Source: Ardenticatena sp.
GTDB taxonomy: Bacteria; Chloroflexota; Anaerolineae; Ardenticatenales; Ardenticatenaceae
Length of the DNA stretch: 64,000 nt
Assembly (NCBI GenBank): GCA_015487975.1
Contig: WFOS01000076.1
Coordinates: 11,091-75,090 of the forward strand
Reading direction: 5' to 3'
Positions 311 to 32,560 of this stretch are shown here, piece after piece. Position 1 is the first letter of the stretch. Each line of letters begins with the position of its first letter. The translations under genes and the position numbers were made by a program. A model generated the notes under the pieces. It had not been told where the DNA came from and did not search any database. It saw nothing but the letters and a program-made list of their open reading frames with translations.

Positions 311-1147
311 TCATTGCGTCGACGAAGACGCACCGGTGGAATTTCCTTCCACGGCTGCTTTCGGGCGCATATCGTATCGCCCCAAGAGGTGATTCCAACG
401 TACCATTAGGACATCGCGGAAGAGACGCCACGAGTCGAGCAAGGGGTTGACTTTGCTCTCGCGCCCGTAGCGCCATGCAACTGGTACTTCCTTGACTTTG
501 TAGCCAAGTTGCAGCGCCAGGAAGAGGAGTTCCACATCGAAACCAGTCACCATGCTCCCCTTGACGGGGCCCTTGCTCCCATCGTGAATACGCAAGCGGG
601 GGAACAAATCGTGTACGGCTTCGCGGCGCATCGCTTTGAACCCGCACTGCGTATCTTGAATGCCTGGCACTGCCAGCAACTGCACCAGCAAGTTGAAGAC
701 GCGCCCCATCAAATGACGGTAGAAAGGTTCCCCCACACGTTGGTTCGGGCCTCCGCCTTCCCGCGACCCAATCACAATGTCATACGATTGCTCGAAATAA
801 GGGAAAAAGCGTTCGACCTCGTGAATTGGCGTCGACAGGTCGGCATCGCTGAACAGGACGATCTCACCGCGCGCCGCCAGCATGCCCGTGCGTACCGCAT
901 ACGCTTTGCCGTAATGCTCGTTCTCGATGATACGCACACGGGGGTCACCAGCAACAACCTCGCGAGCCCGCTCGACCGTGCGATCTTCCGAGCCATCATC
1001 CACCACGATGACTTCGGCCTCGAAGGGTTGCGTATCCAGGTACTCAAGCACACGCTTCAAGTTGGGCGGTAAGCGGCGCTCTTCGTTGTACGCCGGTATG
1101 ACAATCGAGAGAAACGGTTGCTCGGAAATGGGTTGCCTCCTCATCAT
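311..1147 (-). CDS. Family-2 glycosyltransferase (polyprenyl/dolichyl-phosphate hexosyltransferase-like)
   Basis: 278-aa ORF. 'FLSIVIPAYNEERRL', 'VIVVDDGSEDRT' and 'FSDADLS' (DXD) are GT-A/GT2 signatures. The start ATG 1147-1145 overlaps the upstream ORF's stop (ATGA). Confidence 0.9.
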   Translation of the reverse strand: MMRRQPISEQPFLSIVIPAYNEERRLPPNLKRVLEYLDTQPFEAEVIVVDDGSEDRTVERAREVVAGDPRVRIIENEHYGKAYAVRTGMLAARGEIVLFSDADLSTPIHEVERFFPYFEQSYDIVIGSREGGGPNQRVGEPFYRHLMGRVFNLLVQLLAVPGIQDTQCGFKAMRREAVHDLFPRLRIHDGSKGPVKGSMVTGFDVELLFLALQLGYKVKEVPVAWRYGRESKVNPLLDSWRLFRDVLMVRWNHLLGRYDMRPKAAVEGNSTGASSSTQ

Positions 1148-1716
1148 TGTATTCCGAAACGTTGCTTACATTCATCGTACAAATCGTCTATTCGAAGCAC
1201 CAAAGCCCGTTTTCGGGTTTCGTAAGGAAAAAGATAGACATCTTTCTCACACATTGTTACCTTATCATTACGCACTCTGGCTTTCCGTGAATTGTTTGTT
1301 GGTCCACCGATATACACACCAATGACACGATGTCGGGGCGAAAGCCGCAACGTTGTCCTTTGGTGATGCCGTTCTCCATCATCTGGTAAATTCGATTGCT
1401 GAGAACAACGACAAAAATGTTCAATCGTCGTACGCAATTGCCGTGCCGCACGCCCAACGTGCTCCAATGTATTTTTGATTTCGATCACCAAGACGAGATC
1501 CTCAACATCATCTTGTAGTCCACGGGCAACAACCAGGCCATCGGCAGAAGATGGTTGATTGGATAGTTCCTGGTATACAACCGCAAAATACCCATTACGT
1601 GCCACATCGATTTCGAAGGCATGAATCATATAGCGTTGAGAAGACACGACCTTGACGATATATTGATTTTCATCCCCAGAAAAGGAAGCTTCCTGCTTCG
1701 AAAATCCTTGTAACAT
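1144..1716 (-). CDS. Hypothetical 190-aa protein, possible PD-(D/E)xK-like nuclease; partner of the upstream ATPase
   Basis: ATG 1716 overlaps the ATPase stop (TAATG) and its own stop overlaps the GT2 start (ATGA). A purine-rich GGGAAGGG lies about 10 nt upstream. It is clearly AT-richer than the flanks: my hand count of 1141-1260 gives about 39% GC. '...SADGLVVARGLQDDVEDLVLVIEIKNT...' could be a D...E-x-K core. I recognise no family by eye. Confidence 0.6.
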   Translation of the reverse strand: MLQGFSKQEASFSGDENQYIVKVVSSQRYMIHAFEIDVARNGYFAVVYQELSNQPSSADGLVVARGLQDDVEDLVLVIEIKNTLEHVGRAARQLRTTIEHFCRCSQQSNLPDDGERHHQRTTLRLSPRHRVIGVYIGGPTNNSRKARVRNDKVTMCEKDVYLFPYETRKRALVLRIDDLYDECKQRFGIQ

Positions 1717-2942
1717 TATTTTTTCCCTTCCCCGCTATGAGCACTGGCATATGTCAGAATGCGCGACAATTGAATATCTTGCTCGTGCTGCGCCTGCCGC
1801 AAAACATCCTCTTCGATCCAATACATCCTTTGGCCTTTGGCATCCGTGAGAGGGGAAACAATCGATGTCACAGATCCATTTTCTGTCTTGTACACGGCAA
1901 CTTGTTCAGGCTTCAGACGGGTTTCTGGTGGTGGCAATGTCGCATCATCCACACTATCGGGTAAAAGAACCCCTGCCGCCAAAAGGTTATTGAATGCAAA
2001 CAAAAGATCGGCAGAATGCGTCGTAATGGTGATCGAAAATCCTCGATTGACGAGAAATGCCAAAGTCCATGCAATGGCCATCTGCGCTTCCGGATAGAGG
2101 TGAGACTCTGGCTCTTCTATGTGGATAGAAGAAGGTGGCGCTTGGGAAACGGTATCAAGAGCCTTTTGCCATTCGACGAGCATTTGGGCAACGACAATGA
2201 GAGGCCAACTTTGCATCTGTCCGGACGAGGCCAACTCGATATCCAAGCGCGTTGCTTCGGCATTGCGTGGACGCCATTGCCAAGTATTGGCATAGCGCCC
2301 TTTCCGCTCCAACGCAAAGTATCCTCGAAGTGCTTCCGCTGCCCATGCTTGGATACGTTGTGCTTCCTCACTCCGAAAAGGATACCAATCGTTGACACGC
2401 AAAAGATGCCGACCGAACTCACGCACCGTAATTGGAAGCGCACTATGCCCGAGCAACTGGGGATCCGTATTGATGAAACGAGAAAGGAACAAGCGTTCGG
2501 CGGGTATGAACAGCGCTCGTGAAGGGGGTTCGGCAGGATTGTCGCGCCATAGCGCAATCCAACGTTCTATTTCCTTTTGGAACTTCCCCAGCGGGCGCGC
2601 TCTATTGTTGACGTACATACTCACGGAACGCTCATGCTCGCCGATATACGTCCATGTCGTCGTTGCCTGAGCCAGAAAGACGCTCAATGCTCGCTGAGTC
2701 TTCTCACCCGCCCGCAAGTGGCGCAGAGTCACCGCCACAGTCGCATCGACATCTCGCGTTCCCCGCATTCGATAGAGCAAATTCTCAGCATCGCGAAAGA
2801 AATACAAGATCTCACTCAATAACGATTTTCCACTCCCCTGTGGCCCAACGAAAATCGTGAGTGGGCGAACATCTATGTGCAACGGCGCCTTGAATGGCCC
2901 AAATGTACCTTTTTCCAATCGCAACTGTTCTGACATGAACAT
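1716..2942 (-). CDS. ABC/SMC-type AAA_15/AAA_21-like ATPase (OLD/RecF-like family)
   Basis: ORF 1716..3038 trimmed to ATG 2942, which is preceded by GAGGAGACA. The longer form would overlap the GT2 stop at 3001. Motifs: Walker A 'GPQGSGKS', signature-like 'ASSGQMQ', Walker B 'IHIEEPESHLYP' and H-loop 'TTHS'. Confidence 0.8.
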   Translation of the reverse strand: MFMSEQLRLEKGTFGPFKAPLHIDVRPLTIFVGPQGSGKSLLSEILYFFRDAENLLYRMRGTRDVDATVAVTLRHLRAGEKTQRALSVFLAQATTTWTYIGEHERSVSMYVNNRARPLGKFQKEIERWIALWRDNPAEPPSRALFIPAERLFLSRFINTDPQLLGHSALPITVREFGRHLLRVNDWYPFRSEEAQRIQAWAAEALRGYFALERKGRYANTWQWRPRNAEATRLDIELASSGQMQSWPLIVVAQMLVEWQKALDTVSQAPPSSIHIEEPESHLYPEAQMAIAWTLAFLVNRGFSITITTHSADLLFAFNNLLAAGVLLPDSVDDATLPPPETRLKPEQVAVYKTENGSVTSIVSPLTDAKGQRMYWIEEDVLRQAQHEQDIQLSRILTYASAHSGEGKK

Positions 2943-3000
2943 TGTCTCCTCTTGCACACCACCTACATGCGCGGCAAGCATACTCGCCTGATAGGCACTG

Positions 3001-3945
3001 TCAACTGAATAGCGCTTCGATCTCTTCATCGCTGACACGTGCCGTCGCGTGAATTCGCCAGCGGTCTGGCACGTAGCGCGGCCAAGTCAATGCCCCCACC
3101 AGCATACCGCGCAAGCGTGCGCGTGCTGCAGCACCACGCCATGCTCGTAATGCCGCCCATGCGTGGCGTGCCTGGGCACGGGCAATGGCACGCCAATTGC
3201 GGTGCAGCGCCCGTGTGGGGAAGTTCTTGGTAATGACGTAGAACCAGTTGCGCCCGACGTAATAACTGGCAAAGGTGCCACCACCTGTGGCGCTGACTTT
3301 GTGGTACACCACAGCATCGGGCACGTAGATACAACGCCAGCCACGCCACTGCGCCCGAAACGCCAAATCGACATCTTCCAGATACGAACCAAGCCGCTGG
3401 TCGAACAGCCCGACATCGTCGAAGAGCGCACGCCGATAGAGTGCCGCCGCCCCACACGGGGCAAAGACATACTCTTCCTGGTCGAAGCGCCCATCGTCTG
3501 GTTGCCATACACCGCGGTTGCCGGGTTGCGCATCTCGGCTCATGGTGTCGCCGGCGGTGTGTAAGCGTGTGCGATCGTCCCACAGGCGAACTTTGCAGGC
3601 CGCCATACCCGCATCGGGGTGACGCAACAACCCCGCCACAAAGCGTTCCAGCCAGTCTGGTTCTTGCTCGGTATCGTTGTTCAGCAACGCGATGAGGTCG
3701 CCCCGTGCTGCCTGCACCCCTGCATTGAACGCTGCTACCACGCCACGATTGTGTGGAAATGCCACCACGCGCACCTGCGGCCAAGCCGTCGCCAGCCATT
3801 CAACCGAGCCATCGGTGCTCCCGTTGTCCACCACCACTACCTCGAAAGGGTGATAGGTTTGGGCAAAGAGCGAAGGGAGACAGGCTGCCAAGTGATGCTT
3901 TCCATTCCAGTTGGGGATGACGACGCTCACCAGTGGATTCGTCAT
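3001..3945 (-). CDS. Family-2 glycosyltransferase (rhamnosyltransferase-like)
   Basis: 'LVSVVIPNWNGKHHLAACLPSL...VVVVDNGSTDGS' and 'LLNNDTE' are GT2 signatures. Start set at ATG 3945, which overlaps the rfbD stop (ATGA), rather than the 3969 ORF start. Confidence 0.9.
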   Translation of the reverse strand: MTNPLVSVVIPNWNGKHHLAACLPSLFAQTYHPFEVVVVDNGSTDGSVEWLATAWPQVRVVAFPHNRGVVAAFNAGVQAARGDLIALLNNDTEQEPDWLERFVAGLLRHPDAGMAACKVRLWDDRTRLHTAGDTMSRDAQPGNRGVWQPDDGRFDQEEYVFAPCGAAALYRRALFDDVGLFDQRLGSYLEDVDLAFRAQWRGWRCIYVPDAVVYHKVSATGGGTFASYYVGRNWFYVITKNFPTRALHRNWRAIARAQARHAWAALRAWRGAAARARLRGMLVGALTWPRYVPDRWRIHATARVSDEEIEALFS

Positions 3946-4775
3946 ACCAGCCCCTCGGCACGCACCCATTCGAGCAAGCCTTCCTGCCAGTGGGGTAACC
4001 CCACACCAACCTGGCGAGCCGCAAGTGTGTGGAGTTCAGCCCGTTTGGGGACACGCGCCGGGCGCGGATAATGGTCGGTTGGTTCGAGGGGATAATCGGT
4101 GCGCCCAATCGCATTCAAAATGGCGCGTGCAAACGCAAAGCGCGTGGCGCATCCTTCGTTCACCAGGTGGTAAATGCCGAACGCTTCTGTCTGAATCAGC
4201 CGGGCAATCGCCTGTGCCAGATGCGGTGCATAGGTGGGATGCCCAGCCTCGTTCGTCACCATCCGCAGGAAAGGATGCTGCTCGGCGAGGTCGAGCACCT
4301 TGCGCGGGAAGTTGCGACCACCGGGGCCATACACCCAAGCGGTGCGAGCAATGTAGAAACGCGTGAGCAAATGGCGCACGAACCATTCGCCTGCCAGTTT
4401 GCTCGCGCCATACACGTTGAGCGGATTCGTGGGGTCCCATTCCCAATAGGGCGTTTCTTTCTCACCATCGTACACGTAATCGGTGCTAATGTAGCAGAGC
4501 GCCGCATTGACACGTTGTGCCAGCAACACCACATGCTGTGTGCCCAGTGCATTGACACGATACGCGGCGTCGGGATCGAGTTCGCACCCATCTACATTGG
4601 TCATGGCTGCCGCGTGAATGATGACGTCCGGTTCCCAATCGGCAAGTGCCAATACAGCACGGCGATCGCTCACATCCAGATCGGCATGAGCAAGTGGCAA
4701 TGTTTCGTGTTCGTCCAGTGCCTGCTGCAAAGCACGCCCCAATTGTCCATTGGCGCCAGTGATGAGGATACGCAT
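3942..4775 (-). CDS. rfbD: dTDP-4-dehydrorhamnose reductase
   Basis: 'MRILITGANGQLGRAL' Rossmann motif, 'STDYVYDG' and 'YGASKLAGE' (YxxxK) are typical RmlD motifs. ORF 3942..5108 trimmed to ATG 4775, which has a GGGGAG RBS. The 111-aa N-terminal extension has no protein-like character. Confidence 0.9.
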   Translation of the reverse strand: MRILITGANGQLGRALQQALDEHETLPLAHADLDVSDRRAVLALADWEPDVIIHAAAMTNVDGCELDPDAAYRVNALGTQHVVLLAQRVNAALCYISTDYVYDGEKETPYWEWDPTNPLNVYGASKLAGEWFVRHLLTRFYIARTAWVYGPGGRNFPRKVLDLAEQHPFLRMVTNEAGHPTYAPHLAQAIARLIQTEAFGIYHLVNEGCATRFAFARAILNAIGRTDYPLEPTDHYPRPARVPKRAELHTLAARQVGVGLPHWQEGLLEWVRAEGLV

Positions 4776-4924: not shown

Positions 4925-6292
4925 ATGAGCAGAAAGATGAGCAAACAGAGGCAGGTACGCCACCGTTGCCCATTTTTGGGGGATGACACACGCCCCAAAC
5001 GTGGGCACCCCTACCCACATGATGCCCACCGCTGTTGGGCGAAAGGTACGCCTGCCACCATTCCACGCCGCCGTCAAGCGCAACACTGCCTGCGCGATGC
5101 TCACACACGTTGTCCCATCTTCACGGCGCTCATCCCACAGGAACAGATCTCCGTGCGCCCAGACACCGCCCCCACACAGGCGCTGATTGCCCTGTTGGAT
5201 GAACCGCCGCGACGGCGCCCACCATCGCGGCCACATGCCACCACGTCTACGCGAGCCACACATGGCCACCTGCTCCGCAAACTGCGAAGCCAGACCGCCG
5301 CGCATTCCAAAAGGACACGTCCGCACCCAACAGAACGCGCAACCGCTACGCACGCCACCCGTGCGACCATCGCGACGCGCCCCAGCACACGCCCCCAATA
5401 TGCCACACGCGCTGCGCGGCTCATGCCCGCCACACCAACCCCCTTGCCGCGCCGTCGTGCCTCGCTCTGGTTGTGGGGCTTTGCCATGACGCCGATGCTG
5501 GCGGCAATCGTCATTGCCGCGTTCATCATCATGCGCACCAGCGGGTCATCTGCGCCCAGCCCAGACGCGCTGGCCGTCGCCACGCCTTTCGCCAACAATG
5601 TCGCCCTGGCTGCCGTGCCGTCAAGCAGCCCCCCATCGCCCACGGCCACACCAGGCTCGTTCATCCCGCTTCTCGCCATCACCGACACCAACGCGCCACC
5701 ATTCGACCCGGTTGCCGAAGCTACCGTTGTCGCCCAAACCGAGCAGGAAAAATCGCAAACGGGCACCGACCAGCCCAATGCCCCCCTCATCGCCACTCCG
5801 GGGCCATTCCCACCACCGGCGACAAGCCCCCCCTCGCGACTCATCATCCCAGCCATCAACCTCGCCTCGCGCGTTGTGCCCGTTGGTACCTACTTGGTCC
5901 AGCAAGGCAACTATCTCGTGCGCTACTACCAGGTCGCAGAATACGCTGTCGGATGGCATGAAGATAGTGCCCTCCCCGGCGCACGCGGCAACACCGTCAT
6001 GGCCGGACACAACAACACCAAAGGCGAAGTATTCCGCGATTTATGGAAACTCGAACCGGGCGACATGGTCTACGTCGAAGCCGATGGACGCCTCTACGCC
6101 TACCAGGTGGCGCTCAAAAAAATCGTGCGCGAAGTCGGTGTGCCGCTCGAACAGCAATTCGAGAACGCCCGCTGGATTGCGCCCACGAACGATATCCGCC
6201 TCACACTCGTTTCGTGCTGGCCGTATGAAAGCAATACGCACCGTGTCATCATCGTCGCTGTCCCATTCGGCACCAACGTCGTCACGCAATAG
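4925..6292 (+). CDS. Sortase-family transpeptidase with an N-terminal cytoplasmic Cys/His-rich domain, a TM segment and a Pro-rich linker
   Basis: The C-terminal domain reads 'SRLIIPAINLASRVVP...NTVMAGHNNT...IRLTLVSCWP', with the sortase His and the TLxTC-type Cys. TM segment 'LWLWGFAMTPMLAAIVIAAFII'. A strong GAGGAGAC RBS sits directly before ATG 4925. The N-terminus reads 'CPFLGDDT...HRCW...QHCLRDAHTRCPIF'. An alternative shorter start is ATG 5423. Confidence 0.75.
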   Translation: MSRKMSKQRQVRHRCPFLGDDTRPKRGHPYPHDAHRCWAKGTPATIPRRRQAQHCLRDAHTRCPIFTALIPQEQISVRPDTAPTQALIALLDEPPRRRPPSRPHATTSTRATHGHLLRKLRSQTAAHSKRTRPHPTERATATHATRATIATRPSTRPQYATRAARLMPATPTPLPRRRASLWLWGFAMTPMLAAIVIAAFIIMRTSGSSAPSPDALAVATPFANNVALAAVPSSSPPSPTATPGSFIPLLAITDTNAPPFDPVAEATVVAQTEQEKSQTGTDQPNAPLIATPGPFPPPATSPPSRLIIPAINLASRVVPVGTYLVQQGNYLVRYYQVAEYAVGWHEDSALPGARGNTVMAGHNNTKGEVFRDLWKLEPGDMVYVEADGRLYAYQVALKKIVREVGVPLEQQFENARWIAPTNDIRLTLVSCWPYESNTHRVIIVAVPFGTNVVTQ

Positions 6293-18173: not shown

Positions 18174-18539
18174 TTAGCGAGCGATATCGTGAACAGCGAG
18201 GGTATCACCCACTGCTGTGTGGGTCCGTTCGATTGTGCCAGGAGGAAGTTCCAAAACAGCGTAAGCCCCTCGATGAACTGGCCCGACGCGCCATGGCGGT
18301 ACAGTCGGATGCACACTCAAGACGCGCCAGATCTCGTCTAGAAACAACACATCGATGGGAAAACGCATGAAAAAAGTGTGAATAGACCAATCTGGAACAA
18401 GAAGCAACCCGTCATCGGGTGCCAGCGACCGCTGAAACATCAAACCACGCAAGCGCGAGAGGAACGTATCGGCACGGCGGGCGTGTTCGCACACAACTGT
18501 TTGCCGCGTTGTATTTTCGATACGCAGAGGTGTCATCAC
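18174..18539 (-). CDS. DUF192-domain protein
   Basis: 'ADTFLSRLRGLMF...LLLVPDWSIHTFFMRFPIDVLFLD...AYAVLELPPGT' is the DUF192 pattern. Its start overlaps the tadC stop (ATGA). Confidence 0.8.
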   Translation of the reverse strand: MMTPLRIENTTRQTVVCEHARRADTFLSRLRGLMFQRSLAPDDGLLLVPDWSIHTFFMRFPIDVLFLDEIWRVLSVHPTVPPWRVGPVHRGAYAVLELPPGTIERTHTAVGDTLAVHDIAR

Positions 18540-19468
18540 AGCGCACCCAATGCATCCATAATGCGCGGGATCGCCGGCCCCAGCAACACAATGAAGATTG
18601 CTGGGAAAATCAGGAAAACGAGGGGGAAGAGCATCTTGATCGACGCTTGTTGGGCCTGTTCTTCTGCCCGTTGTCGGCGGCGAATACGCATTTGCTCGCT
18701 CTGGGTACGCAAGACCTTGGCGATCGAAACACCCAGCTGGTCAGCCTGAATGATGGCAGCCACGAAGCCGCGAATTTCATCCACCTGTGTACGCTCAGCA
18801 AGATCGCGTAGAGCTTCGCGGCGTGTTTTCCCCAAACGGATTTCGGTAATCACGCGGTTGAATTCTTTTGCCAGTTCGTTATCGCCCCACTTTTCTGCGA
18901 CCTTTGCCATCGCCTGGTCGAACCCCAAACCGGCTTCCACACTAATCGTCATCAAGTCCAGGGCATCTGGCAATGTTTTGAGAATCATTTTACGCCGATC
19001 TTGAATTTTGCGATTGATCCAGATTCCTGGAAGCAAAAAACCAAGCAACCCGAAGCCAATGGCAAAGCCAATGACACGAATCAGTGCGGCACCACTCAAA
19101 AAGAGCAAAATTCCAGGCAAGGCCCCCAGCACGATAGCAGCCAGACCACGAACCCCCAAAAAGTCCGCAGGTGTCCAATCGTTGGGATTGCCGGCCGCCT
19201 CCAGAAGGGCACGCTGATTTTCAAGCACCTGCTGCGGGGTGAAGCGCGAAATTGTCGAAGCAAGCGAGCGAATCAGTGGGCGCAAAACACGTTCGGTGAA
19301 TGGCTCTTCCAGTTCGAGCTCTTGCAACGATGTCACTTGTCGGGTGCCATACCGAGCGATACGCTCGCTCACATCTTCGGTTTCGGTCTGCAATGCGCCT
19401 GAAAGTCCGAGGATAATCAAAAAGACGCTTGCGCCTGTCAACAATGCCACCAGGAGTGGAATCAACAT
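18536..19468 (-). CDS. tadC: Type II secretion system F-family protein (TadC-like)
   Basis: T2SSF-type topology with 'LPDALDLMTISVEAGLGFDQAM'. ORF trimmed to ATG 19468, which has a GGAGGG RBS. Confidence 0.85.
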   Translation of the reverse strand: MLIPLLVALLTGASVFLIILGLSGALQTETEDVSERIARYGTRQVTSLQELELEEPFTERVLRPLIRSLASTISRFTPQQVLENQRALLEAAGNPNDWTPADFLGVRGLAAIVLGALPGILLFLSGAALIRVIGFAIGFGLLGFLLPGIWINRKIQDRRKMILKTLPDALDLMTISVEAGLGFDQAMAKVAEKWGDNELAKEFNRVITEIRLGKTRREALRDLAERTQVDEIRGFVAAIIQADQLGVSIAKVLRTQSEQMRIRRRQRAEEQAQQASIKMLFPLVFLIFPAIFIVLLGPAIPRIMDALGAL

Positions 19469-19476
19469 AAGCCCTC

Positions 19477-20436
19477 CTAAACCTCGATCGCAATGATCTT
19501 GCGAATGGCGAAGTTCCCTGCCACGATGAGGAAAATAGCCGTCACGAGCATAATCCAGCCACACGTGGTTGTATAAAGCAGCGAAACATATTCACGATTG
19601 ACCATGAACATAAACAAGAAGAGGGCCACAGGAACGAACGTCAATACCCATCCAGCGAGGCGCTGCTGTGATGTCAGAACGCGGATTTCGCCTTGAATGC
19701 GCACACGTTCGCGAATGGTATGCGCCAGAATATCCAAAATTTCTGCCAAGTTCCCACCGACCTCTTTTTGAACGTTGATGGCGGTAATCATCATGTCCAG
19801 GTCGTCACTCGGGACACGTTCCAACAAGTTTTTCAGCGCCTGCTCTTCGGTAAGCCCAAGCCCCACCTCACGAATGACCACACGGAATTCGGCGCCAATG
19901 GGGTCGGGCATTTCCCGCGAAAGGACTTCCATGCTCTGAAGCAGACTATACCCAGCACGCAAGGAATTTGCCAGCAAACCAATAGCATCCGGCAACATAT
20001 CGTTGAATTTATTTATGCGACGCTGTTGCCGCATGCGCAACCAGATGCGCGGCAGAAATATCCCCACAATTGCGGCCCCCATCGCCAGGACAATATTCCG
20101 GAACAAAATCCAGCCGAGCAATCCCATGAGAAGAACGGTGAGGAGATTGAACGTGAACCACTCGCGCGGTGTCAGTTTCAAATCGGCGCGAGCGAGCTCC
20201 ACAAGCAGACCGCTTCGTCGTGCCTGTTCCTCCGCCAGTTCGTCAAGAAAACTTCCACCCGAATCCGATTCATCATCGATGATGTCTAGAAACTCGAACT
20301 GGCCGCTTTCGCGATGGGCATATCGTTGCAAGCGGTCGTCGACAATTTCAGCCGGTGCACTCAAAACTTGTGCCAGCCCAATGAAAACGAGCAGAATGCT
20401 GAGCCCAACCAGCCCTGCTGCAACCAACGGCGTCAT
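19477..20436 (-). CDS. tadB: Type II secretion system F-family protein (TadB-like)
   Basis: 'LPDAIGLLANSLRAGYSLLQSMEVL' and three or more TM segments. Confidence 0.85.
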   Translation of the reverse strand: MTPLVAAGLVGLSILLVFIGLAQVLSAPAEIVDDRLQRYAHRESGQFEFLDIIDDESDSGGSFLDELAEEQARRSGLLVELARADLKLTPREWFTFNLLTVLLMGLLGWILFRNIVLAMGAAIVGIFLPRIWLRMRQQRRINKFNDMLPDAIGLLANSLRAGYSLLQSMEVLSREMPDPIGAEFRVVIREVGLGLTEEQALKNLLERVPSDDLDMMITAINVQKEVGGNLAEILDILAHTIRERVRIQGEIRVLTSQQRLAGWVLTFVPVALFLFMFMVNREYVSLLYTTTCGWIMLVTAIFLIVAGNFAIRKIIAIEV

Positions 20437-20457
20437 GGTGCCATCTCCTCACCCGTA

Positions 20458-21837
20458 TTAGCGTCGCACACCGAAAATTTGTGGTGGCAGGTGAATATCG
20501 TGTTCTTCCAGCCGGTTCATAAAGCGCGGAATGATGCCAGTGGGGCGCAGGCGACCAATGATGCGACCATTTTCGTAGCCCGTTTGCTGGAAGACGAAAA
20601 TGTCTTGCATCACAATCACATCACCTTCCATGCCCTGCACTTCGGAGATGTGCGTAATCTTGCGCGTCCCGTCACGGAATCGTTCTTGGTGTACAACAAG
20701 GTCCACAGCGCTGGCGATCTGCTCACGAATTGCCCGCAATGGCAAATCCATACCAGCCATCAGGGACATGGTTTCCATACGCGCCAGGGTATCGCGCGGG
20801 CTGTTGGAGTGCAACGTTGTCATCGACCCTTCGTGGCCAGTATTCATCGCCTGCAACATGTCCAGCGTTTCACCACCACGACACTCACCAACCACGATAC
20901 GGTCGGGGCGCATACGCAATGAGTTGATCACAAGATCACGAATGGTCACTTCACCACGTCCTTCGATGTTAGGGGGGCGGCTTTCCAGCGTGACGACATG
21001 TTCCTGGTGCAATTGCAATTCAGCAGCGTTCTCGATCGTGATAATGCGTTCCCCCTCTGGAATGAAACTCGACAAGACATTGAGCAATGTCGTCTTCCCG
21101 GAACCAGTACCACCGCTAATCACAATATTCAACTGCGCCTGAACACAGGCCTTCAAAAATTCCATCGCTTCCTTGGTACAACTACCAAAGCGGATCAAAT
21201 CCTCGGCTGTCAAACGGTTGCGACTAAACTTGCGGATGGTAATCGTGGGGCCATTCAATGCCAATGGGGGAATGATGATATTCACACGGCTTCCGTCAGG
21301 CAAACGTGCGTCTACATATGGCTGGCTCTCATCGACGCGGCGACCAATCGGTGAAACAATACGGTCGATAATGCGCATCACATGCTCATCACTATCGAAC
21401 TGAATAGGCACTTTTTCGAGTTTCCCTGCCCGCTCAACATAGATGTGGTTGGGGCCATTCACCATGATTTCTGAAATCGAGTCATCTTGCAAAAGCGGTT
21501 CGAGCGGCCCATATCCCAAAATTTCGGCAATAATGGCCTCGAAAAGCGAATTGCGTTGTGCGCGTGTTAGCACCATTCCGCTTTCGTTGAGATACTCCTC
21601 GAACATAGCGCGGATGGTGTTGCGCACCTCATCCTTTTTTGAAAGATCGATTTTGGGGTCTAGTTCAGCAATGAGCTTCGACTGGATTTCGCTCTTCAAT
21701 TCCGCAAATGAATCACGGGCCGCCGGTGCTAATGGCTGCCGCCGCAGACGTGTCTCGGGCGCAGATGAAGATGCCGAAGATGTGATCCTCGATTTGCCCT
21801 TGCCATCTTTTCCTTCCAATCGCCGCAAGAGACTCAT
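20458..21837 (-). CDS. cpaF: CpaF/TadA-type pilus assembly ATPase
   Basis: 'NIVISGGTGSGKTTLLNVL' (Walker A), 'RIITIENAAEL', 'RMRPDRIVVGECRGGE' and 'GHEGSMTTLHSNS' are the VirB11/CpaF family boxes. Confidence 0.95.
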   Translation of the reverse strand: MSLLRRLEGKDGKGKSRITSSASSSAPETRLRRQPLAPAARDSFAELKSEIQSKLIAELDPKIDLSKKDEVRNTIRAMFEEYLNESGMVLTRAQRNSLFEAIIAEILGYGPLEPLLQDDSISEIMVNGPNHIYVERAGKLEKVPIQFDSDEHVMRIIDRIVSPIGRRVDESQPYVDARLPDGSRVNIIIPPLALNGPTITIRKFSRNRLTAEDLIRFGSCTKEAMEFLKACVQAQLNIVISGGTGSGKTTLLNVLSSFIPEGERIITIENAAELQLHQEHVVTLESRPPNIEGRGEVTIRDLVINSLRMRPDRIVVGECRGGETLDMLQAMNTGHEGSMTTLHSNSPRDTLARMETMSLMAGMDLPLRAIREQIASAVDLVVHQERFRDGTRKITHISEVQGMEGDVIVMQDIFVFQQTGYENGRIIGRLRPTGIIPRFMNRLEEHDIHLPPQIFGVRR

Positions 21838-21853
21838 TCCATCCTCCCATTAC

Positions 21854-23209
21854 TTATGAACGACCAAACAGCTTTCCAAACAGAGACCCATCCTTGCCTT
21901 TCTTCGGTGTTCGAGCCTGTTGTTCACGCCTGCCAGCACGTCCAGCAGACCCTTCACTCTCATCCTGGTGTGGAGATGAAACCTTTTCGCTAAATCGTTT
22001 GGCAAGCCCCAAAACACCTTGGGCAATAGGGGTACGCTGCTGATTGATGACGAACGGAATCCCTTTGTTCAAGGCATCGATGGCAACGCGTTCATTCGCT
22101 TCGATGACAGCCAGCAACGGGTGCCGAATACTGGATTGAATTGCTTCCGGTTTAATACCGGTACGCACATCATACCGGTTGAGCACAAGCTCGATTTTGG
22201 ATTCATCGTAGCCCAATTGCTCACCAAGTTCAAAGAAGTTCTTTGTATTGCGAATAGCAGGGATTTCAGTTGTCATCACCAGCAAAATTTTGTCAGCATG
22301 ATCAAGAATCGTGAGAACTGGTTCATGGAGCGAGGTACGTGTGTTGACAAATACATAATCGTATTCCGAACGCAGCAATTCAAACATCTTGACGAATGTC
22401 TCAGGCGTCACCAATTCAGCATCCACAGGGGTCAATGGTGCCAAAAGCACCTTCACACCCGATGAATGCGTTACGGAAATATCATGCAAAAACTGGATAT
22501 CAGCTTCCTCAATCGCTTCGGCCAGGTCGCGGAGTGTGCGTGTGACTTCAAGGTTCAAGAACACACTGACATCACCAAATTGCAAGTCAGCATCGACAAG
22601 CGCCACCCGGGCCGAAGGATGCTGTTGTTGCAACGCCAATGCCATGTTCACGGCCAGCGTTGTGGCGCCCACTCCACCTTTTGCTCCGAAGATTGCCGTA
22701 ATCGTTGCCCCCCGTGTGACCTGAGGAGTGCTCATTCGTGCTGCTGTTGCTTGTGCGATCCCTTGCGCGATCCCACGCTGTTCAAGACCAGCCTGAGGGG
22801 AGATGGGCGTTTCTACCTGAGGCGGACGCATCTGCTGCGCCAGAGCATAGACCCGGCGAATACTGGTACTAAGTTCATCACTCGAAAATGGTTTGATCAA
22901 ATACTCGCGTGCGCCAGCCAACATAGAACGCCGTAGGTAATCGGCGTCGTTTTGCACACTCATCATAATGACCTGGGTGCCGGGAACTTCGCGTGTGAGC
23001 GCTTCGACCGTGGCGATCCCATCCATGCCCGGCATATTGATATCCATCAAAACGATATCGGGGCGCAGTCGGCGGGCCTGCTGAATAGCCTCTTCTCCGC
23101 TGCCAGCTGTTCCCACTACTTCGATATCGTTTTCGAAGAAGAGCAATTTCTTCAAGTTTTCACGCGTATCAGCGCTGTCGTCGACGATGAGTAAGCGGAT
23201 TGTGCTCAC
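21854..23209 (-). CDS. cpaE: Response-regulator receiver domain fused to a CpaE/MinD-like ATPase
   Basis: REC domain: 'IRLLIVDDSADTRE...DIVLMDINMPGMDG...KPF'. Deviant Walker A: 'ITAIFGAKGGVGATTLAVNMA'. Confidence 0.9.
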   Translation of the reverse strand: MSTIRLLIVDDSADTRENLKKLLFFENDIEVVGTAGSGEEAIQQARRLRPDIVLMDINMPGMDGIATVEALTREVPGTQVIMMSVQNDADYLRRSMLAGAREYLIKPFSSDELSTSIRRVYALAQQMRPPQVETPISPQAGLEQRGIAQGIAQATAARMSTPQVTRGATITAIFGAKGGVGATTLAVNMALALQQQHPSARVALVDADLQFGDVSVFLNLEVTRTLRDLAEAIEEADIQFLHDISVTHSSGVKVLLAPLTPVDAELVTPETFVKMFELLRSEYDYVFVNTRTSLHEPVLTILDHADKILLVMTTEIPAIRNTKNFFELGEQLGYDESKIELVLNRYDVRTGIKPEAIQSSIRHPLLAVIEANERVAIDALNKGIPFVINQQRTPIAQGVLGLAKRFSEKVSSPHQDESEGSAGRAGRREQQARTPKKGKDGSLFGKLFGRS

Positions 23210-23300
23210 GACGCCTCTCCTTCATGTCGGATATGCTCTTTTTAGCATCGAAAGGTACGCATCCCCAGAAAGAACATCGGACCGAATCGTCTCCCCAACA

Positions 23301-24128
23301 TCATTGCGTTGGTTCAACGAAGACCGAGTCCAACAACGCCTGATCCAACCCAAAGTTGGTAAGGATATAGCGTAGCGTGACCGGTTCGACGGTATATTCG
23401 GTTTCATCACCAGCCGGGCGCAATACAAAGATAGGTGTCATATATTGAGAAATATATGTCAAGATAGCCGCCTGTTGACGATCGACGAGCAATGTATACA
23501 TGTTTCCGGCTGCTGCTTCACCATCTTCGGCTGTCCATGGCGATGTGCGCAAAATTTCAATGTTTTGCAACGTAAAAGCCGTCATATTGATAGAAGTGCG
23601 GCTCAAGTTCGGCGGTAATGTCCCCCCCAAATCCTGAATCGATGCCGAGAACGAAACAATCAGGTCAACCGTATCACCCGGACGAATGGCGCCAGCCACG
23701 CTCGAAACTTCGTTGACTGGAAACGCCATAGCAACTTTTCCCTCGGGAATCAAGAAGGACACATCCGAACGTTGCGCCGCACTGGCTCCCAACTCTTCGG
23801 CGGCTGCTTCTTTATCCACAACCATATCTCGCACAATGGGTTGGCCCTGGTAAATATCTGTCGTTGCCAGCTTATTGGCAACACTCGCCGTATCTGTCAA
23901 AGCCCCGGTAGGAATCAACTCCACTGGCCAATCGCGTACTGTGATCGCATCCGGCGGGATGACACTTCGTGCTGGAATGGGCTGAATCGCGACAACAACC
24001 GGGCGCGTTTCAACCGGTGCTGCTTCTTCGCCTGACGATGTCGCCAACATGAAGAAAACCAACCCGGCGGAAACAACGGCCAAAATCAAACCAAGTAAGA
24101 CGAGGATTCGACCACGCATGCTATTCAC
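23301..24128 (-). CDS. cpaB: Flp pilus assembly protein CpaB/RcpC-like
   Basis: N-terminal TM segment, then a SAF-like 'VVVAIQPIPARSVIPPDAITVRDWP' and the RcpC-type C-terminal domain. Confidence 0.8.
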   Translation of the reverse strand: MNSMRGRILVLLGLILAVVSAGLVFFMLATSSGEEAAPVETRPVVVAIQPIPARSVIPPDAITVRDWPVELIPTGALTDTASVANKLATTDIYQGQPIVRDMVVDKEAAAEELGASAAQRSDVSFLIPEGKVAMAFPVNEVSSVAGAIRPGDTVDLIVSFSASIQDLGGTLPPNLSRTSINMTAFTLQNIEILRTSPWTAEDGEAAAGNMYTLLVDRQQAAILTYISQYMTPIFVLRPAGDETEYTVEPVTLRYILTNFGLDQALLDSVFVEPTQ

Positions 24129-24200
24129 CTCGTATCTTCAAGTTGTTTGCGTATGGTGAGCATACCGTTTCTCATGGTTGCTGGCAAGTCAACCACGTGC

Positions 24201-27200
24201 TCAACGGAAAATAACAGGTAAATAGACATCACAATTGGGTGGACAAACGATCCTTTCGACGATGAGCCCATCAGGCAAAACACCTGTACCACCATCAGGG
24301 TTACGAACATACACATCCCATGCGCCGTTCAACTGCCCTAACAAGTCAAATGTGGCTTCAATTTGGGAACTTGAAAGCGATGTCACCACACCATCGATGC
24401 GTGCATTCTCTTTCTGAATCCAGACGGAAGCCCCTGTAGCAAAGTTCGCCCCGCTAATGGTGATGTTCTGATCATCCTGAGGCATAACACGTACCGGCGA
24501 GACAGAAACGACTTCAGGGCTTGGTGCAATGGCATCCGTCACTGTAATGACCAAGGGACCAATCAAATTATTCGTTTCAGGCCACTCTGGGATAGGCCAA
24601 CCATTTCCTGTACCACCATCGCCATCATCTGTATTGACCTGCGCATACACGTAATAGGTGCCAGGGGTTGCAAATGACGTATATGGCGTTCCCATCGAAT
24701 CGTCACTGGAAAGTGTCACACGCCCATTTTGCTGCAAAGAAGCCCCATTCACGTACCAGTAGGTGCCAACATCGGACAATTCCATGCGTGAAGGTGGATT
24801 CGGTTGCGAACGCACATACAAATCTGCCCAAATTCCCCACGTTTCTGGATCAGGGAGCTGATCGACGCTTGGCATTCCCGTCATACGTGCCTCGAAAGTA
24901 ATCACGACAGGCTCGCTAGTGCGTAAGACGGTGCGTGTCGCTGCCAACCCAGATGCCCAAAAATCACCAGCGACAGGGACGAAAATGGGTTCACCCATTG
25001 CAGCATGACCACTCGCATCCTTCACACCATACTCGGTATTGGCAATCCCACCTGCATCGACACTATCGACACGCACGGTATACGAAACAACACCACTTCC
25101 ACCTAGTCCCACAAGGTCAGTTGGCCATGTCCATGAAAGCACATCACCAACTACGACAGCACCATTGGATTGCAGCAAGGTCGTGTTCGCTGGAATACGG
25201 TCCGTTACAACGATGCCGGTCGCATCCATATCGCCCGTATTGGTAAATGCCAACGTAAACGTCACCACATCATTTGGCAGCACACCGCTCGATGGCTGGG
25301 CACGCTTGCTGATATGCAAAACGGGGCGGCTGGTCAATGTCAAGAGTGCCTCGTTGGACATGAGATCGCGAGCGGAAAGCGTTCGCGCCTGAGCCGTATT
25401 GGTGATAGCGGTTGTACCAGCCGGGAGTGGGCGATCGACCCGGACCCGGAAGGAGAGTTCACCACTCTGACCAATCGGCACTGAACCAACAACCCAACGT
25501 AGTTCCGGAAGGTTGGAGGCATCGGCACCGGGGCCACTGATTGAATCAGTGAGATACGTTGTGTGAAGCGGAATGGTGTCCGTCAACACAACATCGCTCA
25601 AATCGACGTTCCCCGTGTTGGTATAGACAATCCGATACAACACTTCATCCCCTGCTTTGGCCACTGCAGGAATGGCTTCTTTGCGAATGTCCAGCTGGAC
25701 TGTCGTGGTAATCGTGTTGAATACTGCGTTACTGAAAGCCGGTAAGCTATCAGTACTACTAATAGTGGCTGAGTTGAAAATGTCGTCTCCCGAAAATGCC
25801 TCGACATCCGTGTTCACTTGCACTTTGAACGTGAGTGTCCCACCACTGTGCGGTGCGATTTCTGGCACCAACCAGCGTAAAACAGGTGGTGTCTGGTTTG
25901 TATCATATTCAAAGGTAAAGTTTGCTGGATGTGTTTCCGAGCCAACGACATAGAGCGTGTTCGTCGGCACAGCATCTTCGATGACGACATTGCGCGCCGG
26001 TATATTGCTGGTATTGGAAATCTCCAATGTGTATTGGATCTCCTGACCAGGCACAACCAGGCCTTGCGGCGAGTTTGCCTTCGTGAAATCGAAGCGGACG
26101 ACTTCCAAGTCATTCAAGACCTGTGATCGATTGTTTCCTGGGTCTACATCGGGTCCAGGATAATCGATCTCGACCGTGTTGGTGATCACCGGGCGAGCCT
26201 CTTGCAACGGTAAGGCAGTCAGGACATCCGTTACACGCAGGGTCACAGTGATGGTATTCGTGACACCAGGTTCTACCCGTCCGAGATTGGCAGTGTACAT
26301 ACGATCGCCTGTTTGCGTCACCCCAGCAAATGCAAATGGATGCGACGCATTCACGAAATCAACATAGGAGGGGAAGGTCTCGGTCAACACCGCATTCGTA
26401 GCCACCGAATCTGCCGCCGTCGCGCGGTTTCCATACTGAATCGTGTATGTTATCAAGCTTCCACGGGCAATGAAACCTGTATTCAAACTTGCTTTCGAGA
26501 CCCACAAATCAGGAGGCGGAACTTCATACACCAACTGCACCCGCTGCACAGAGGGGGTTGTCTTTGTAAAGGCCGTTCCCATACGGATACGATATTGTAC
26601 GAACTGTCCGCTTGTTCCCAGAGGTAATTGAATCGAATCCGTGTAGATGCCGTCTGGCTGACGCAACGTTTGCGTGTAGGTACTGTGGAAAGGCCCTATC
26701 CAGGGAGCTTTCTGCAAGTTGCTCAAAGAGCCATCTGCCACGCGATATTCAATCGTGACAGTCACAGGAGTCGTATTCAGATCGAGAGTTGGGCTGATGA
26801 AAGTCGTCCACCGCAATTCGCGCAACGTGCGGTTCGAGAAAAGCACAATTGGGCGTGAGACGAACTCGCCATAAGGTGCATACTGGGATGCGGCCCCGCT
26901 CATCGAGCCATAATCGACGACATTCGTCCCTGGGGACGCAATCCCTTCACTCGCCCCGCCAATCACGTAAATCCATCCACGGCTCGAAATGACAGCATCA
27001 TGGAGAAATCGCGTAAGCGTCAGCGCCTTCGTCTCGAACCAGAAATCGATGCCGCCATCAGGACGCACGATCCCAGTCGTCACTTTGTCCGATGCTTGGT
27101 TCAAATTACTCCCAGATGCACCACCGATGATCAAAAACTGACCATTGTATTCCACAGCTGCAGCATGCCGCCGTTGTTCCGGCAAAGGCTGTGTCGTATT

Positions 27201-28226
27201 CCACCCCCCGGGAATAGGGTCCGTTAGTCCCTGTGGCGTTGCGTAGTAAACGTTGCTCGCAATGTCGCTTCCAGCAATGTTGTACAATCGGCCTTCATAT
27301 GCCAATGCTGAACTCCCGAACACTTTTTCAGGGAGATTCGGGGTAAGACGCTTCCATTGGGAGATCGTACCATCCGCATTGGGCTGTGCGGCAAAAATAC
27401 ATGCTGATCCATCCAAAACACCCGGCTGTCCCCCGATCACATAAATCGTATCGCTCATGACAATAGCCGCTGTACGAGCACGCCCCGTCTCCCCATTTGT
27501 CAATTCGTCACACAACCCCTTAGTATCCGATATAGGAAGCGGAGTCGTCTCGGTGAAACTCCCCAATGAGCCATCAGTGACATCGATAGGCGCGAAGAAA
27601 ACCGTATCGGTCACGATATAATTCTGATCGATCCCACCAATTACATACAAATAATTGTTCCAAATAACCGATTGATGTCCATAGATTGCCACTGGCAATG
27701 AAACGGGAAGCGTTTCCCATATCCCAGGTTTGTCGGGCGTATCAGGCACATTGCTTGTAATAATCGTCGTATGATAAATCGCGGCAGATGGCACTTGATT
27801 GACTTCTCCGCCGATAACGTACAAATGCTCTACACCTTGTGCATCTTTGAAAATTTCCACCGTATGTGACTTGATGGCCGGTAATCCCTGCCCCATATCC
27901 GAATACCAATTACCCGCAAGCCCAATTGCCAACAAGGTAATCTCACCATTCCCATCTCCTACAGGTGCATCCCGCCGTGAGACGCCCGTCAAGTAACCAC
28001 GTCCCTCGAAAAAATCTTGTTCGGTGTCATCCTCGATGATTGCCAAGAGAGGTGTGGCTGCTGGCAAAGCCGATCGTCGAACCAGAGAAGAAGGCGAGGC
28101 ATTACGTGCATCGACAGGCGAAATCCACAAAATGGTCAAGAGCATCGAAACGCCTAAAACAAGCAAAACCCCCAAACTCATCAAGAAGAATGCCCCGCGA
28201 CGAGAAACTCGTAACAAGTGGAACAT
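24201..28226 (-). CDS. 1341-aa exported surface protein: six Kelch-like blades, four DUF11-type repeats and a C-terminal IPT/TIG domain
   Basis: Signal/TM segment 'FFLMSLGVLLVLGVSMLLTIL'. Repeated 'LYVIGG/IYVIGG/FLIIGG' Kelch blades. DUF11-like units 'ITYTIQYGN...', 'IQYTLEISNTSN...VIEDAVP', 'VLYRIVYTNTGN...VLTDTIP' and 'VTFTLAFTNTGD...VVTDRIP'. IPT-like 'NITISGANFATGASVWI'. The protein ends '...CDVYLPVIFR'. Confidence 0.85.
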   Translation of the reverse strand: MFHLLRVSRRGAFFLMSLGVLLVLGVSMLLTILWISPVDARNASPSSLVRRSALPAATPLLAIIEDDTEQDFFEGRGYLTGVSRRDAPVGDGNGEITLLAIGLAGNWYSDMGQGLPAIKSHTVEIFKDAQGVEHLYVIGGEVNQVPSAAIYHTTIITSNVPDTPDKPGIWETLPVSLPVAIYGHQSVIWNNYLYVIGGIDQNYIVTDTVFFAPIDVTDGSLGSFTETTPLPISDTKGLCDELTNGETGRARTAAIVMSDTIYVIGGQPGVLDGSACIFAAQPNADGTISQWKRLTPNLPEKVFGSSALAYEGRLYNIAGSDIASNVYYATPQGLTDPIPGGWNTTQPLPEQRRHAAAVEYNGQFLIIGGASGSNLNQASDKVTTGIVRPDGGIDFWFETKALTLTRFLHDAVISSRGWIYVIGGASEGIASPGTNVVDYGSMSGAASQYAPYGEFVSRPIVLFSNRTLRELRWTTFISPTLDLNTTPVTVTIEYRVADGSLSNLQKAPWIGPFHSTYTQTLRQPDGIYTDSIQLPLGTSGQFVQYRIRMGTAFTKTTPSVQRVQLVYEVPPPDLWVSKASLNTGFIARGSLITYTIQYGNRATAADSVATNAVLTETFPSYVDFVNASHPFAFAGVTQTGDRMYTANLGRVEPGVTNTITVTLRVTDVLTALPLQEARPVITNTVEIDYPGPDVDPGNNRSQVLNDLEVVRFDFTKANSPQGLVVPGQEIQYTLEISNTSNIPARNVVIEDAVPTNTLYVVGSETHPANFTFEYDTNQTPPVLRWLVPEIAPHSGGTLTFKVQVNTDVEAFSGDDIFNSATISSTDSLPAFSNAVFNTITTTVQLDIRKEAIPAVAKAGDEVLYRIVYTNTGNVDLSDVVLTDTIPLHTTYLTDSISGPGADASNLPELRWVVGSVPIGQSGELSFRVRVDRPLPAGTTAITNTAQARTLSARDLMSNEALLTLTSRPVLHISKRAQPSSGVLPNDVVTFTLAFTNTGDMDATGIVVTDRIPANTTLLQSNGAVVVGDVLSWTWPTDLVGLGGSGVVSYTVRVDSVDAGGIANTEYGVKDASGHAAMGEPIFVPVAGDFWASGLAATRTVLRTSEPVVITFEARMTGMPSVDQLPDPETWGIWADLYVRSQPNPPSRMELSDVGTYWYVNGASLQQNGRVTLSSDDSMGTPYTSFATPGTYYVYAQVNTDDGDGGTGNGWPIPEWPETNNLIGPLVITVTDAIAPSPEVVSVSPVRVMPQDDQNITISGANFATGASVWIQKENARIDGVVTSLSSSQIEATFDLLGQLNGAWDVYVRNPDGGTGVLPDGLIVERIVCPPNCDVYLPVIFR

Positions 28227-28287
28227 GGGAGACTCCTTCCTCGATTATGATACACATAGACCATGTCCAAACGGAGCGACATGCAAG

Positions 28288-28308
28288 AGGGGGGCATCAA
28301 GCCCCCCT
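28288..28308 (-). other. GC hairpin between the TadG-vWA gene and the giant protein gene
   Basis: 'aggggggc atcaa gcccccct' forms an 8-bp stem. The U-tract on the minus strand is weak, so it may be a processing or attenuation element rather than a full terminator. Confidence 0.3.
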
Positions 28309-28330
28309 TTCTACGCTAGCACGTCGAACA

Positions 28331-30580: not shown

Positions 30581-30609
30581 AAGCCTACCTCACGCACTCT
30601 TCATGGGGT

Positions 30610-31538: not shown

Positions 31539-31571
31539 AGTCTCACTACTGTTGTATCGTTTTCTTACCAC

Positions 31572-32547: not shown

Positions 32548-32560
32548 CCCATTGCTCCTT

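Follow-up and report, generated by a model that had tools for sequence, protein, structure and literature searches.

We analysed a 64,000-nucleotide (nt) stretch of DNA (hereafter the window) from Ardenticatena sp., a member of the Chloroflexota (assembly GCA_015487975.1, contig WFOS01000076.1, positions 11,091 to 75,090), and focused on a two-gene cassette lying within an operon of glycan genes on the minus strand. The first gene of the cassette (1716..2942) encodes an ATPase of 408 amino acids (aa) when read from the ATG at 2942, and the second (1144..1716) encodes a partner protein of 190 aa. The cassette is flanked on the same strand by two GT2 glycosyltransferase genes: the upstream flank belongs to the host operon (3001..3969; Pfam Glycos_transf_2, E = 1.9e-31) and is itself preceded by an RmlD-type reductase gene (rfbD), with a sortase gene beyond, and the downstream flank lies at 311..1147 (Glycos_transf_2, E = 3.6e-34). 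The ATPase and partner genes overlap by 1 nt in the junction TAATG, the partner stop and the downstream GT2 start overlap by 4 nt (ATGA), an arrangement shared by a related locus, L001, and the upstream GT2 stop at 3001 stands 58 nt before ATG 2942. Both open reading frames (ORFs), the two junctions and the gap were found as they had been given in a preliminary description, which was made by eye from the letters of the window. As read from these junctions, the pair is translationally coupled, both internally and to the downstream GT2 gene.

The start of the ATPase is ambiguous. The longest ORF begins at GTG 3038 and the public gene call at ATG 2981 (421 aa), and an alignment of 36 orthologs favours a start at 2942 or 2936. 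A Shine-Dalgarno sequence on the minus strand (AGGAG, 2946-2950) is better spaced for ATG 2936 than for ATG 2942. A consensus scan also placed a promoter-like site (TTGACA-16 nt-TATGCT, 2977..3004, minus strand, 10 of 12 matches) in the 58-nt gap ahead of the ATPase gene, and transcription therefore need not rest on the host operon alone. The site is weak evidence, because promoter-like sites across the scanned region were no more numerous than expected by chance; it hints that the cassette is not purely reliant on operon read-through and may own a promoter. Of the co-transcription with the host operon proposed in the preliminary description, the coupling to the GT2 gene stands, but the operon need not be the only source of transcription. 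A search of the window revealed no direct or inverted repeats bounding the cassette.

The ATPase matched Pfam AAA_15 (E = 3.8e-15, 56.8 bits, cut-off 32.1) and AAA_21 (E = 5.4e-10, 40.2 bits, cut-off 27), which bears out the assignment first made by eye. Its clear orthologs number about 37 database proteins (E < 1e-38, 29-72% identity), and we counted motif conservation over an alignment of 36 orthologs. The Walker A motif GPQGSGKS (residues 33-40, including Lys39; 2823..2846) has G33, Q35, G36, G38 and K39 invariant. In the ABC (ATP-binding cassette) signature-like ASSGQM (residues 238-243; 2214..2231), G241 and Q242 are invariant and A238, S239 and S240 are shared by 90% or more of the orthologs. 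The Walker B motif and D-loop, IHIEEPESHLYP (residues 273-284; 2091..2126), has E276, E277, P278, E279, L282 and P284 invariant, and the H-loop TTHS (residues 307-310; 2013..2024) has T308, H309 and S310 invariant. All of these minus-strand motifs had been picked out in the preliminary description, and the Walker A motif, the signature, the Walker B acidic pair and the H-loop stand in the order typical of ABC ATPases. At the level of the family, the motifs GPQGxGKS, FIPAER, ASSGQM, IHIEEPExHLHP and TTHS are invariant or nearly so. By these motifs and profile matches, the protein is an ABC-type ATPase of the OLD/AAA_15 branch and, because its catalytic motifs are invariant or nearly invariant in the 36 orthologs, it is very probably enzymatically active. 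A profile search with the ATPase family placed an OLD nuclease (6p74, 1e-7), PtuA (3e-7) and GajA (8e-4) as the nearest solved structures, the PtuA structures being those of Septu and retron I-A (3e-7 and weaker); these nearest solved relatives are all ABC ATPases from anti-phage systems. One ATPase ortholog, P0029, is 589 aa long and carries an N-terminal extension of about 180 aa that is absent from the other orthologs.

We compared the gene neighbourhoods of the pair in about 17 independent contexts from Chloroflexota, Cyanobacteria and Myxococcota. Wherever an ATPase ortholog had downstream sequence (L001-L016 and L090-L093), a protein of 136-213 aa, lacking a Pfam hit and bearing a D...E-x-(K/R/E)...Q motif, was always encoded directly 3' of it, with a spacing of -4 to +10 nt and in constant order. 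A scan of GTDB genomes made with the ATPase alignment yielded eight loci with true ATPase orthologs (L010-L017), from Anaerolineae, Ardenticatenaceae, Thermoflexales, Anaerolineales, Sandaracinaceae and Polyangia; in the seven with sequence 3' of the ATPase (L010-L016), the next ORF contains D...E[LM]K...Q and fits the family profile. No third gene was conserved beside the pair across the compared loci, and we discarded the unknown upstream ORFs of L002, L003, L006 and L091 as a third component, as they are mutually unrelated. The ATPase and its partner are thus a real, conserved two-gene module, whose members travel together through unrelated neighbourhoods.

The partner matched no family in Pfam, NCBIfam or PHROG, in line with the first impression that it has no recognisable family. 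A word-indexed protein search returned only the partner itself, and an exhaustive phmmer search of 1.84e9 representative proteins yielded just 11 representatives; some 29 cyanobacterial proteins, each of about 213 aa, came in through a profile search. The putative catalytic core (1438..1542, minus strand) comprises D59 (1540-1542), E79 (1480-1482), K81 (1474-1476) and Q93 (1438-1440). In a 50-sequence alignment, D59 was present in all 49 aligned members, Q93 in 48 of 49 and E79 in 47 of 49; the position of K81 is occupied by lysine in 13, arginine in 28 and glutamate in 8 of 49, and the clade of the window protein has lysine. The D...ExK nuclease core suggested in the preliminary description therefore held up in its D59 and E79, which are conserved, together with Q93, on the expected structural elements, but its lysine is not conserved across the family. 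A further stretch, DDGERHH (residues 112-118; 1363..1383, minus strand), fits a G-[DE]-x-HH motif of the non-cyanobacterial partner subfamily. Among the 50 aligned members, 20 carry an HH dipeptide in this stretch, and the approximately 28 cyanobacterial-type members all lack it. In the cyanobacterial subfamily (P0132-P0158), an MPLxCxGxxLP segment is conserved at the N terminus, ELR replaces ELK, and G[DE]xHH is missing. We discarded as chance a HEPN-like Rx4H string, RTTIEH, that had also been pointed out earlier, since R95 and H100 occur jointly in only 3 of 50 members.

We utilized AlphaFold2 to predict the structure of the partner. With a 38-sequence alignment as input, the model reached a predicted local distance difference test (pLDDT) value of 92.9 and a predicted template modelling (pTM) score of 0.90; a single-sequence run gave a pLDDT of 33 and was not used. 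In the model, D59 lies just before a strand (60-66), E79 and K81 lie within another (74-83), and Q93 lies in the helix that follows (84-100). This is the placement seen in PD-(D/E)xK enzymes, with the Asp at the start of core strand 2, (D/E)-x-K in core strand 3 and a helix after it. All Foldseek matches were weaker than the threshold of E <= 1e-3; the best was to herpesvirus UL24 (E = 7.6e-3, probability 0.96, template modelling (TM) score 0.34); others in the viral library were UL76, Mrr-domain proteins and HamA, and those in the PDB were McrC, BsmI, EcoO109I, PaqCI, EndoMS and HamA. Several endonuclease-fold proteins were thus among the fold matches, at TM scores of 0.2-0.3. Carbonic anhydrases, which topped the PDB fold search at a TM score of 0.15, were taken as an artefact of the all-beta N-terminal part. 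A comparison of the partner-family profile with PDB sequences gave noise only (ADAMTS-5 and designed proteins), and no Pfam clan member of the PD-(D/E)xK superfamily was matched by the partner. The best reading of the model is that the partner adopts a divergent PD-(D/E)xK fold and is the predicted effector of a rare, unannotated family.

Next, we considered how the cassette came to lie in the glycan operon. An empty-site survey started from 80 metagenome loci in which the downstream GT2 has a homolog; in 24 of them the upstream GT2 has one too. The two GT2 genes were adjacent in 22 of these 24 rfbD-GT2-GT2 loci (aligned parts under about 400 nt apart), and the pair was present in none of the 24. 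We found the pair at the junction of the two GT2 genes only in the window, in a near-identical copy (L009) and in the relative L001. Because 22 of the 24 orthologous operons are empty sites, the cassette is an insertion, as had been supposed from the window by itself. The same junction carries other genes elsewhere: a 236-aa S-adenosylmethionine (SAM)-methyltransferase-like ORF and a large polytopic membrane protein in L094 (2864-5937), and two small unknown ORFs of 159 and 171 aa in L152 (5082-5986). The junction may be a recurrent insertion point.

Comparison of the window with L001 separated the cassette from its surroundings. The rfbD product and both GT2 proteins are about 95% identical between the two, with non-synonymous divergence (dN) of 0.02-0.03 and synonymous divergence (dS) of 0.6-0.9. 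Identity is lower for the ATPase, at 73% (dN 0.21), and for the partner, at 49% (dN 0.47), and synonymous sites are saturated in both genes. Nucleotide identity is about 86-90% in the flanks; the fall to 47-77% comes precisely at position 3000 and the return at about 1150. Two readings fit this divergence, namely a divergent allele swapped in through the conserved flanks or very fast evolution of the cassette itself. Together with the empty sites and the base composition described next, these comparisons show the cassette to be foreign in origin and rapidly diverging.

The base composition of the cassette likewise departs from that of its flanks. The partner gene has a GC content of 44.5% (38% at third codon positions, GC3) and the ATPase gene 51.4% (GC3 52%), against 57.5-61% (GC3 63-68%) in the genes flanking the cassette. 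Counts made by hand in the preliminary description, about 39% for 1141-1260 and about 55% for 1741-1800, proved exact (39.2% and 55.0%), and the deviation it had reported is seen in the computed profile both per gene and in kilobase bins: positions 1001-2000 form the lowest-GC kilobase bin of the whole window, and the cassette, taken as an 1800-bp window, lies about 2 standard deviations under the mean. This drop is not unique in the window, because a region encoding a Tad pilus (18-33 kb) is nearly as low in GC. Across the compared loci, the pair was AT-richer than its own flanks in 17 of 18.

The position of the cassette raises the possibility that the pair serves envelope-glycan biosynthesis in an accessory capacity, or is co-regulated with the rhamnose/glycosyltransferase operon. 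The 4-nt overlap of the partner stop with the GT2 start, in both the window and L001, would fit such a role, as would the presence of glycosyltransferase or sugar-nucleotide genes one to three genes away in 4 of the approximately 17 contexts (window/L001, L002, L004 and L090). Glycosyltransferase neighbours look more frequent than expected, and they are neither obligate nor explained. The prospect, raised beforehand, that the pair always sits within rhamnose/glycosyltransferase operons did not hold: an obligate tie was discarded, since about 13 other contexts are unrelated to glycans. Moreover, 22 of the 24 orthologous operons function without the pair, the composition of the cassette is foreign, and both domain types work on nucleic acids in every characterised relative. 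We therefore consider a glycan role very improbable.

We then examined how the pair relates to known ATPase-nuclease systems by running the PADLOC models on the window proteins. The best PADLOC match of the ATPase was to AriA (1.7e-17), limited to the AAA_15 portion at the C-terminal end, which is generic (profile positions 277-371 of 373). It also matched NsnB over most of its length (1.9e-14), PDC-M56A (1.5e-14) and PDC-M47A (8e-8) in part, PDC-M29A over residues 13-104 only (7.6e-12) and PD-T4-4_A over residues 273-355 only (7.3e-10). The partner matched PDC-M29B at 0.019, over residues 72-107 only, at the ExK-Q stretch. Within the partner family, 11 of 38 members weakly matched PDC-M47B at the motif, and 6 of 38 weakly matched Shedu SduA at the D...ExK region (best 3.2e-4); PD-T4-4_B drew no match, either from the window partner or among the 38 members. 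Shedu (SduA, DUF4263) resembles the pair only in these sub-threshold, local matches, and is a single gene without an ATPase, whereas the window holds a two-gene pair.

Two groups of more distant pairs help to place the module. On four viral or proviral contigs from IMG/VR (L174-L177), the ortholog profile picks up ATPase relatives at 146-168 bits, each followed by an ORF of 138-173 aa with xDY...VELKG...Q. Both of the two ATPases scanned match PDC-M29A (2e-25 to 2e-28); of the four ORFs downstream, two match PDC-M29B (2.4e-7 and 1.3e-5). The ATPase profile separates the clades, with orthologs at 213 bits or more and these PDC-M29-like viral pairs at 146-168 bits, and only such distant relatives of the pair were found on viral contigs. 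In GTDB genomes (L018-L089), 60 downstream ORFs of 91-386 aa (mostly 130-250 aa) lie beside more distant AAA_15 ATPases, and two of these genomes (L021 and L049) each carry two AAA_15 pairs in tandem. An RCD[YF]...ELK motif occurs in at least 13 of the downstream ORFs, from Poribacteria, Dehalococcoidia, Nitrospirales and others. The ATPases of this group match PD-T4-4_A at 1e-33 to 8e-38, and also PDC-M47A; their partners match PDC-M47B at up to 6.8e-7 and, in L018, PD-T4-4_B at 1.9e-5. In an hhalign comparison, the partner family of the window aligned with the partners of this group at a probability of 93.7% (E = 2e-7, window residues 54-99, 43 columns), a remote link to PD-T4-4 and PDC-M47.

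PD-T4-4 has been validated by functional selection in E. coli, where it was carried on an element resembling an integrative and conjugative element (ICE) (Vassallo et al. 2022, PMC9519451). It consists of an AAA_15 ATPase and a PD(D/E)XK nuclease (PMC10952713) and has been placed among complex-forming nuclease-NTPase systems (preprint 10.1101/2025.07.10.664194). Literature searches for PDC-M29, PDC-M47 and PDC-M56 returned no descriptions, and no validation of PDC-M29. The window pair shares with PD-T4-4 and PDC-M47 a two-gene layout in which an AAA_15 P-loop/ABC ATPase is joined by a small nuclease of the PD-(D/E)xK type, the latter being predicted in our case. It differs from PD-T4-4 in its shorter ATPase (408 against 460-500 aa), of which only the C-terminal 83 residues match, and in its setting, a Chloroflexota-like housekeeping operon with no mobile-element genes as opposed to an ICE-like element in E. 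coli. In PDC-M29 as in the window, an ATPase some 410 aa long immediately precedes a small protein whose core is of the D...ELK(G)...Q type. The matches of the window proteins to PDC-M29, however, span only about 90 and 36 residues, and the window partner is longer (190 aa against 164 profile positions), with an additional sheet at the N terminus as well as the G[DE]xHH motif. Judged from these profile comparisons, the pair of the window appears to form a clade of its own, covered by no model, within the AAA_15 ATPase plus PD-(D/E)xK architecture; its closest relatives, both remote, are the candidate PDC-M29 and the validated PD-T4-4. The preliminary description had suggested a possible new subtype; this stands for the clade, but not for the architecture, which is known already because PD-T4-4 pairs the same two domain types, and PDC-M29 and PDC-M47 share the layout.

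Better-known systems built on the same ATPase branch were compared as well. PARIS resembles the pair in combining an ABC ATPase with a separately encoded nuclease effector (predicted in the window pair), and its ATPase scaffold frees the nuclease upon sensing a phage protein (PMC11464382). Septu, Gabija, OLD and Menshen likewise use an ABC ATPase of this branch to govern a nuclease or toxin (PMC10568477, PMC12065111). PARIS (AriA/AriB) was ruled out as the identity of the pair because the partner has no Pfam or PADLOC match to DUF4435, Toprim or AriB, and Septu because the partner has no match to HNH (PtuB). With the Pfam and PADLOC model searches, the judgement made by eye that the partner is not of the DUF4435/Toprim, HNH or DUF4276 type proved correct. 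OLD and Gabija were set aside because the 408-aa ATPase has no Toprim and its neighbours are GT2 genes, with no UvrD-like GajB; so was Menshen, as the upstream gene is a GT2 with no DUF262 NsnA, and there is neither a DUF3696 tail nor a conserved third gene.

Taken together, we propose that the cassette is a horizontally acquired, self-contained ATPase-nuclease module, a remote relative of PDC-M29 and PD-T4-4, that probably acts in phage defence; we assign this reading a probability of roughly 0.62. We infer the defence role by analogy with PARIS, Septu, Gabija, Menshen and PD-T4-4, and the insertion, AT-richness and fast divergence of the cassette are indirect signs pointing to the same class. 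In the mechanism that we envisage, an oligomer of the ATPase would bind the small protein and keep the nuclease inactive. A cue from the phage, either a protein or DNA that is abnormal, would then free or activate the nuclease in a step coupled to ATP binding or hydrolysis. The nuclease would cut nucleic acid, which might be invader DNA or host RNA or DNA, and this cleavage would block phage replication, possibly through abortive infection.

Several observations weigh against this proposal. The contexts of the pair consist of housekeeping genes (those for MurC, DAHP synthase, homoserine dehydrogenase, UvrD in L014, a sigma-54 activator, YggS, Sua5 and xanthine dehydrogenase subunits), and no integrase or transposase gene was found at any examined locus, in agreement with what had been noted for the window. 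A restriction-modification gene lies within 4 kb in only 1 of the approximately 17 neighbourhoods, and tblastn searches found neither the partner nor the ATPase in 72,556 plasmids, nor the partner in 50,697 phages. The pair accordingly showed no enrichment near defence genes or on mobile elements. All matches of the window proteins to named defence models were partial or weak. The hhalign comparison between the partner family and the RCD[YF]...ELK group was made with a group picked partly by its motif. Finally, no fold match of the partner reached E <= 1e-3 in Foldseek, the lysine expected of PD-(D/E)xK enzymes is not conserved across the partner family, and nuclease activity is not assured family-wide because arginine or glutamate replaces this lysine in most members. 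Class 1 OLD genes likewise lack a defence-gene or mobile context (PMC10568477). The horizontally acquired ATPase-effector module of the preliminary description is upheld by the insertion, the AT-richness and the pairing, but its neighbourhoods are housekeeping loci and not defence islands. The sole defence gene near any member is an MmeI-type restriction-modification gene about 3 kb downstream of the pair in L093 (5330-6516).

These contexts bear on two other explanations. The pair could be a selfish addiction module of the toxin-antitoxin type, in which a small toxin is restrained by the ATPase and retained with no anti-phage benefit. The tight coupling and conserved order of the pair, its single insertions among housekeeping genes away from defence islands, its AT-richness and its patchy distribution all fit this view, and PARIS-type systems do act like toxin-antitoxin pairs (PMC11464382). 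Addiction and defence by abortive infection are, however, hard to tell apart in practice; the strong divergence that sets both genes off from their flanks fits an arms race better; and no plasmid carriage was found, though addiction modules are commonest on plasmids. On this evidence, we regard an addiction module as a minor possibility. Alternatively, the pair could be a housekeeping ATPase-nuclease for DNA repair or maintenance, like RecF or SbcCD. An ABC ATPase of the SMC/RecF/OLD superclass joined to a nuclease-like partner would suit such a function, as would the housekeeping contexts, including the uvrD neighbour in L014. Yet the family is rare and patchy, with its 11 partner representatives and approximately 37 ATPase orthologs, close relatives lack the pair at the same locus, the pair is AT-rich at 17 of 18 loci, and its non-synonymous change is 7-20 times that of the flanks. 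A repair role is accordingly hard to credit.

The conservation and fold results raise a third explanation, that the partner is an inactive, endonuclease-fold DNA-binding sensor or adaptor, and that the module acts without cleavage or recruits another effector. The replacement of the ExK lysine by arginine in 28 and glutamate in 8 of 49 members is consistent with this, as is the lack of a significant fold match for the partner. Menshen offers a precedent, in that NsnA has inactive REase domains serving DNA binding (PMC12065111). On the other hand, the near-invariant D59, E79 and Q93 are hard to explain without catalysis or metal binding, and no conserved third gene is present to act as the effector. 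Glutamate in place of the lysine also occurs in active enzymes such as BamHI, which weighs against an inactive partner. Overall, we consider an inactive partner unlikely. The glycan and repair explanations are much less likely than addiction or an inactive partner.

The defence reading can also be put in a bolder form, which we offer tentatively and think doubtful as a whole. In this form, the pairs of Chloroflexota, Cyanobacteria and Myxococcota would make up a distinct anti-phage family, whose effector would be a nuclease with an unusual D/E-x-(K/R/E)/Q core and a G[DE]xHH motif, and whose genes would move as a recombinase-free cassette that enters conserved operons and is exchanged by recombination through the flanks.

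Other features of the window were recorded alongside the cassette. The sortase-domain protein next to the rfbD operon is encoded on the plus strand (4925-6292), divergent from that operon, and has a Pro/Thr/Ala/Arg-rich N-terminal half of 64-68% GC; it is 79% identical in L001, compared with about 95% for the glycan genes. A Tad/Flp-type pilus cluster occupies 18536-33688 on the minus strand, with a GC content of 50-53% against 57-61% in most of the window. It encodes two T2SSF proteins (TadB/C), a CpaF-type T2SSE ATPase, a receiver-domain ParA-like ATPase, CpaB/RcpC, a 1341-aa DUF11/Kelch surface protein and a TadE/G-like VWA protein, and is followed by a histidine kinase gene. Two adjacent tRNA-Ala genes lie on the plus strand at 62600-62672 and 62690-62763, with anticodons CGC and GGC, respectively.

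The architecture itself will not surprise specialists; it is the unrecognised effector, the under-studied phyla and the clean insertion that make the pair a good target. The cassette provides a clean case of an immune-type insertion in a housekeeping operon, with occupied sites, empty sites and a divergent allele, and it matters for defence-gene searches because island-based screens would miss a cassette internal to an operon. The natural variation among lysine, arginine and glutamate at the K81 position offers a ready means of testing the requirements of the active site. Should the pair prove active, the class of ABC ATPase-nuclease systems would gain an effector family that current Pfam, NCBIfam and PADLOC models do not recognise, and would reach into Chloroflexota, filamentous Cyanobacteria and Myxococcota, phyla whose defence repertoires are barely charted. 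If it does represent a distinct family, hot spots internal to operons would be a neglected home of immune genes in lineages where defence islands are poorly defined.

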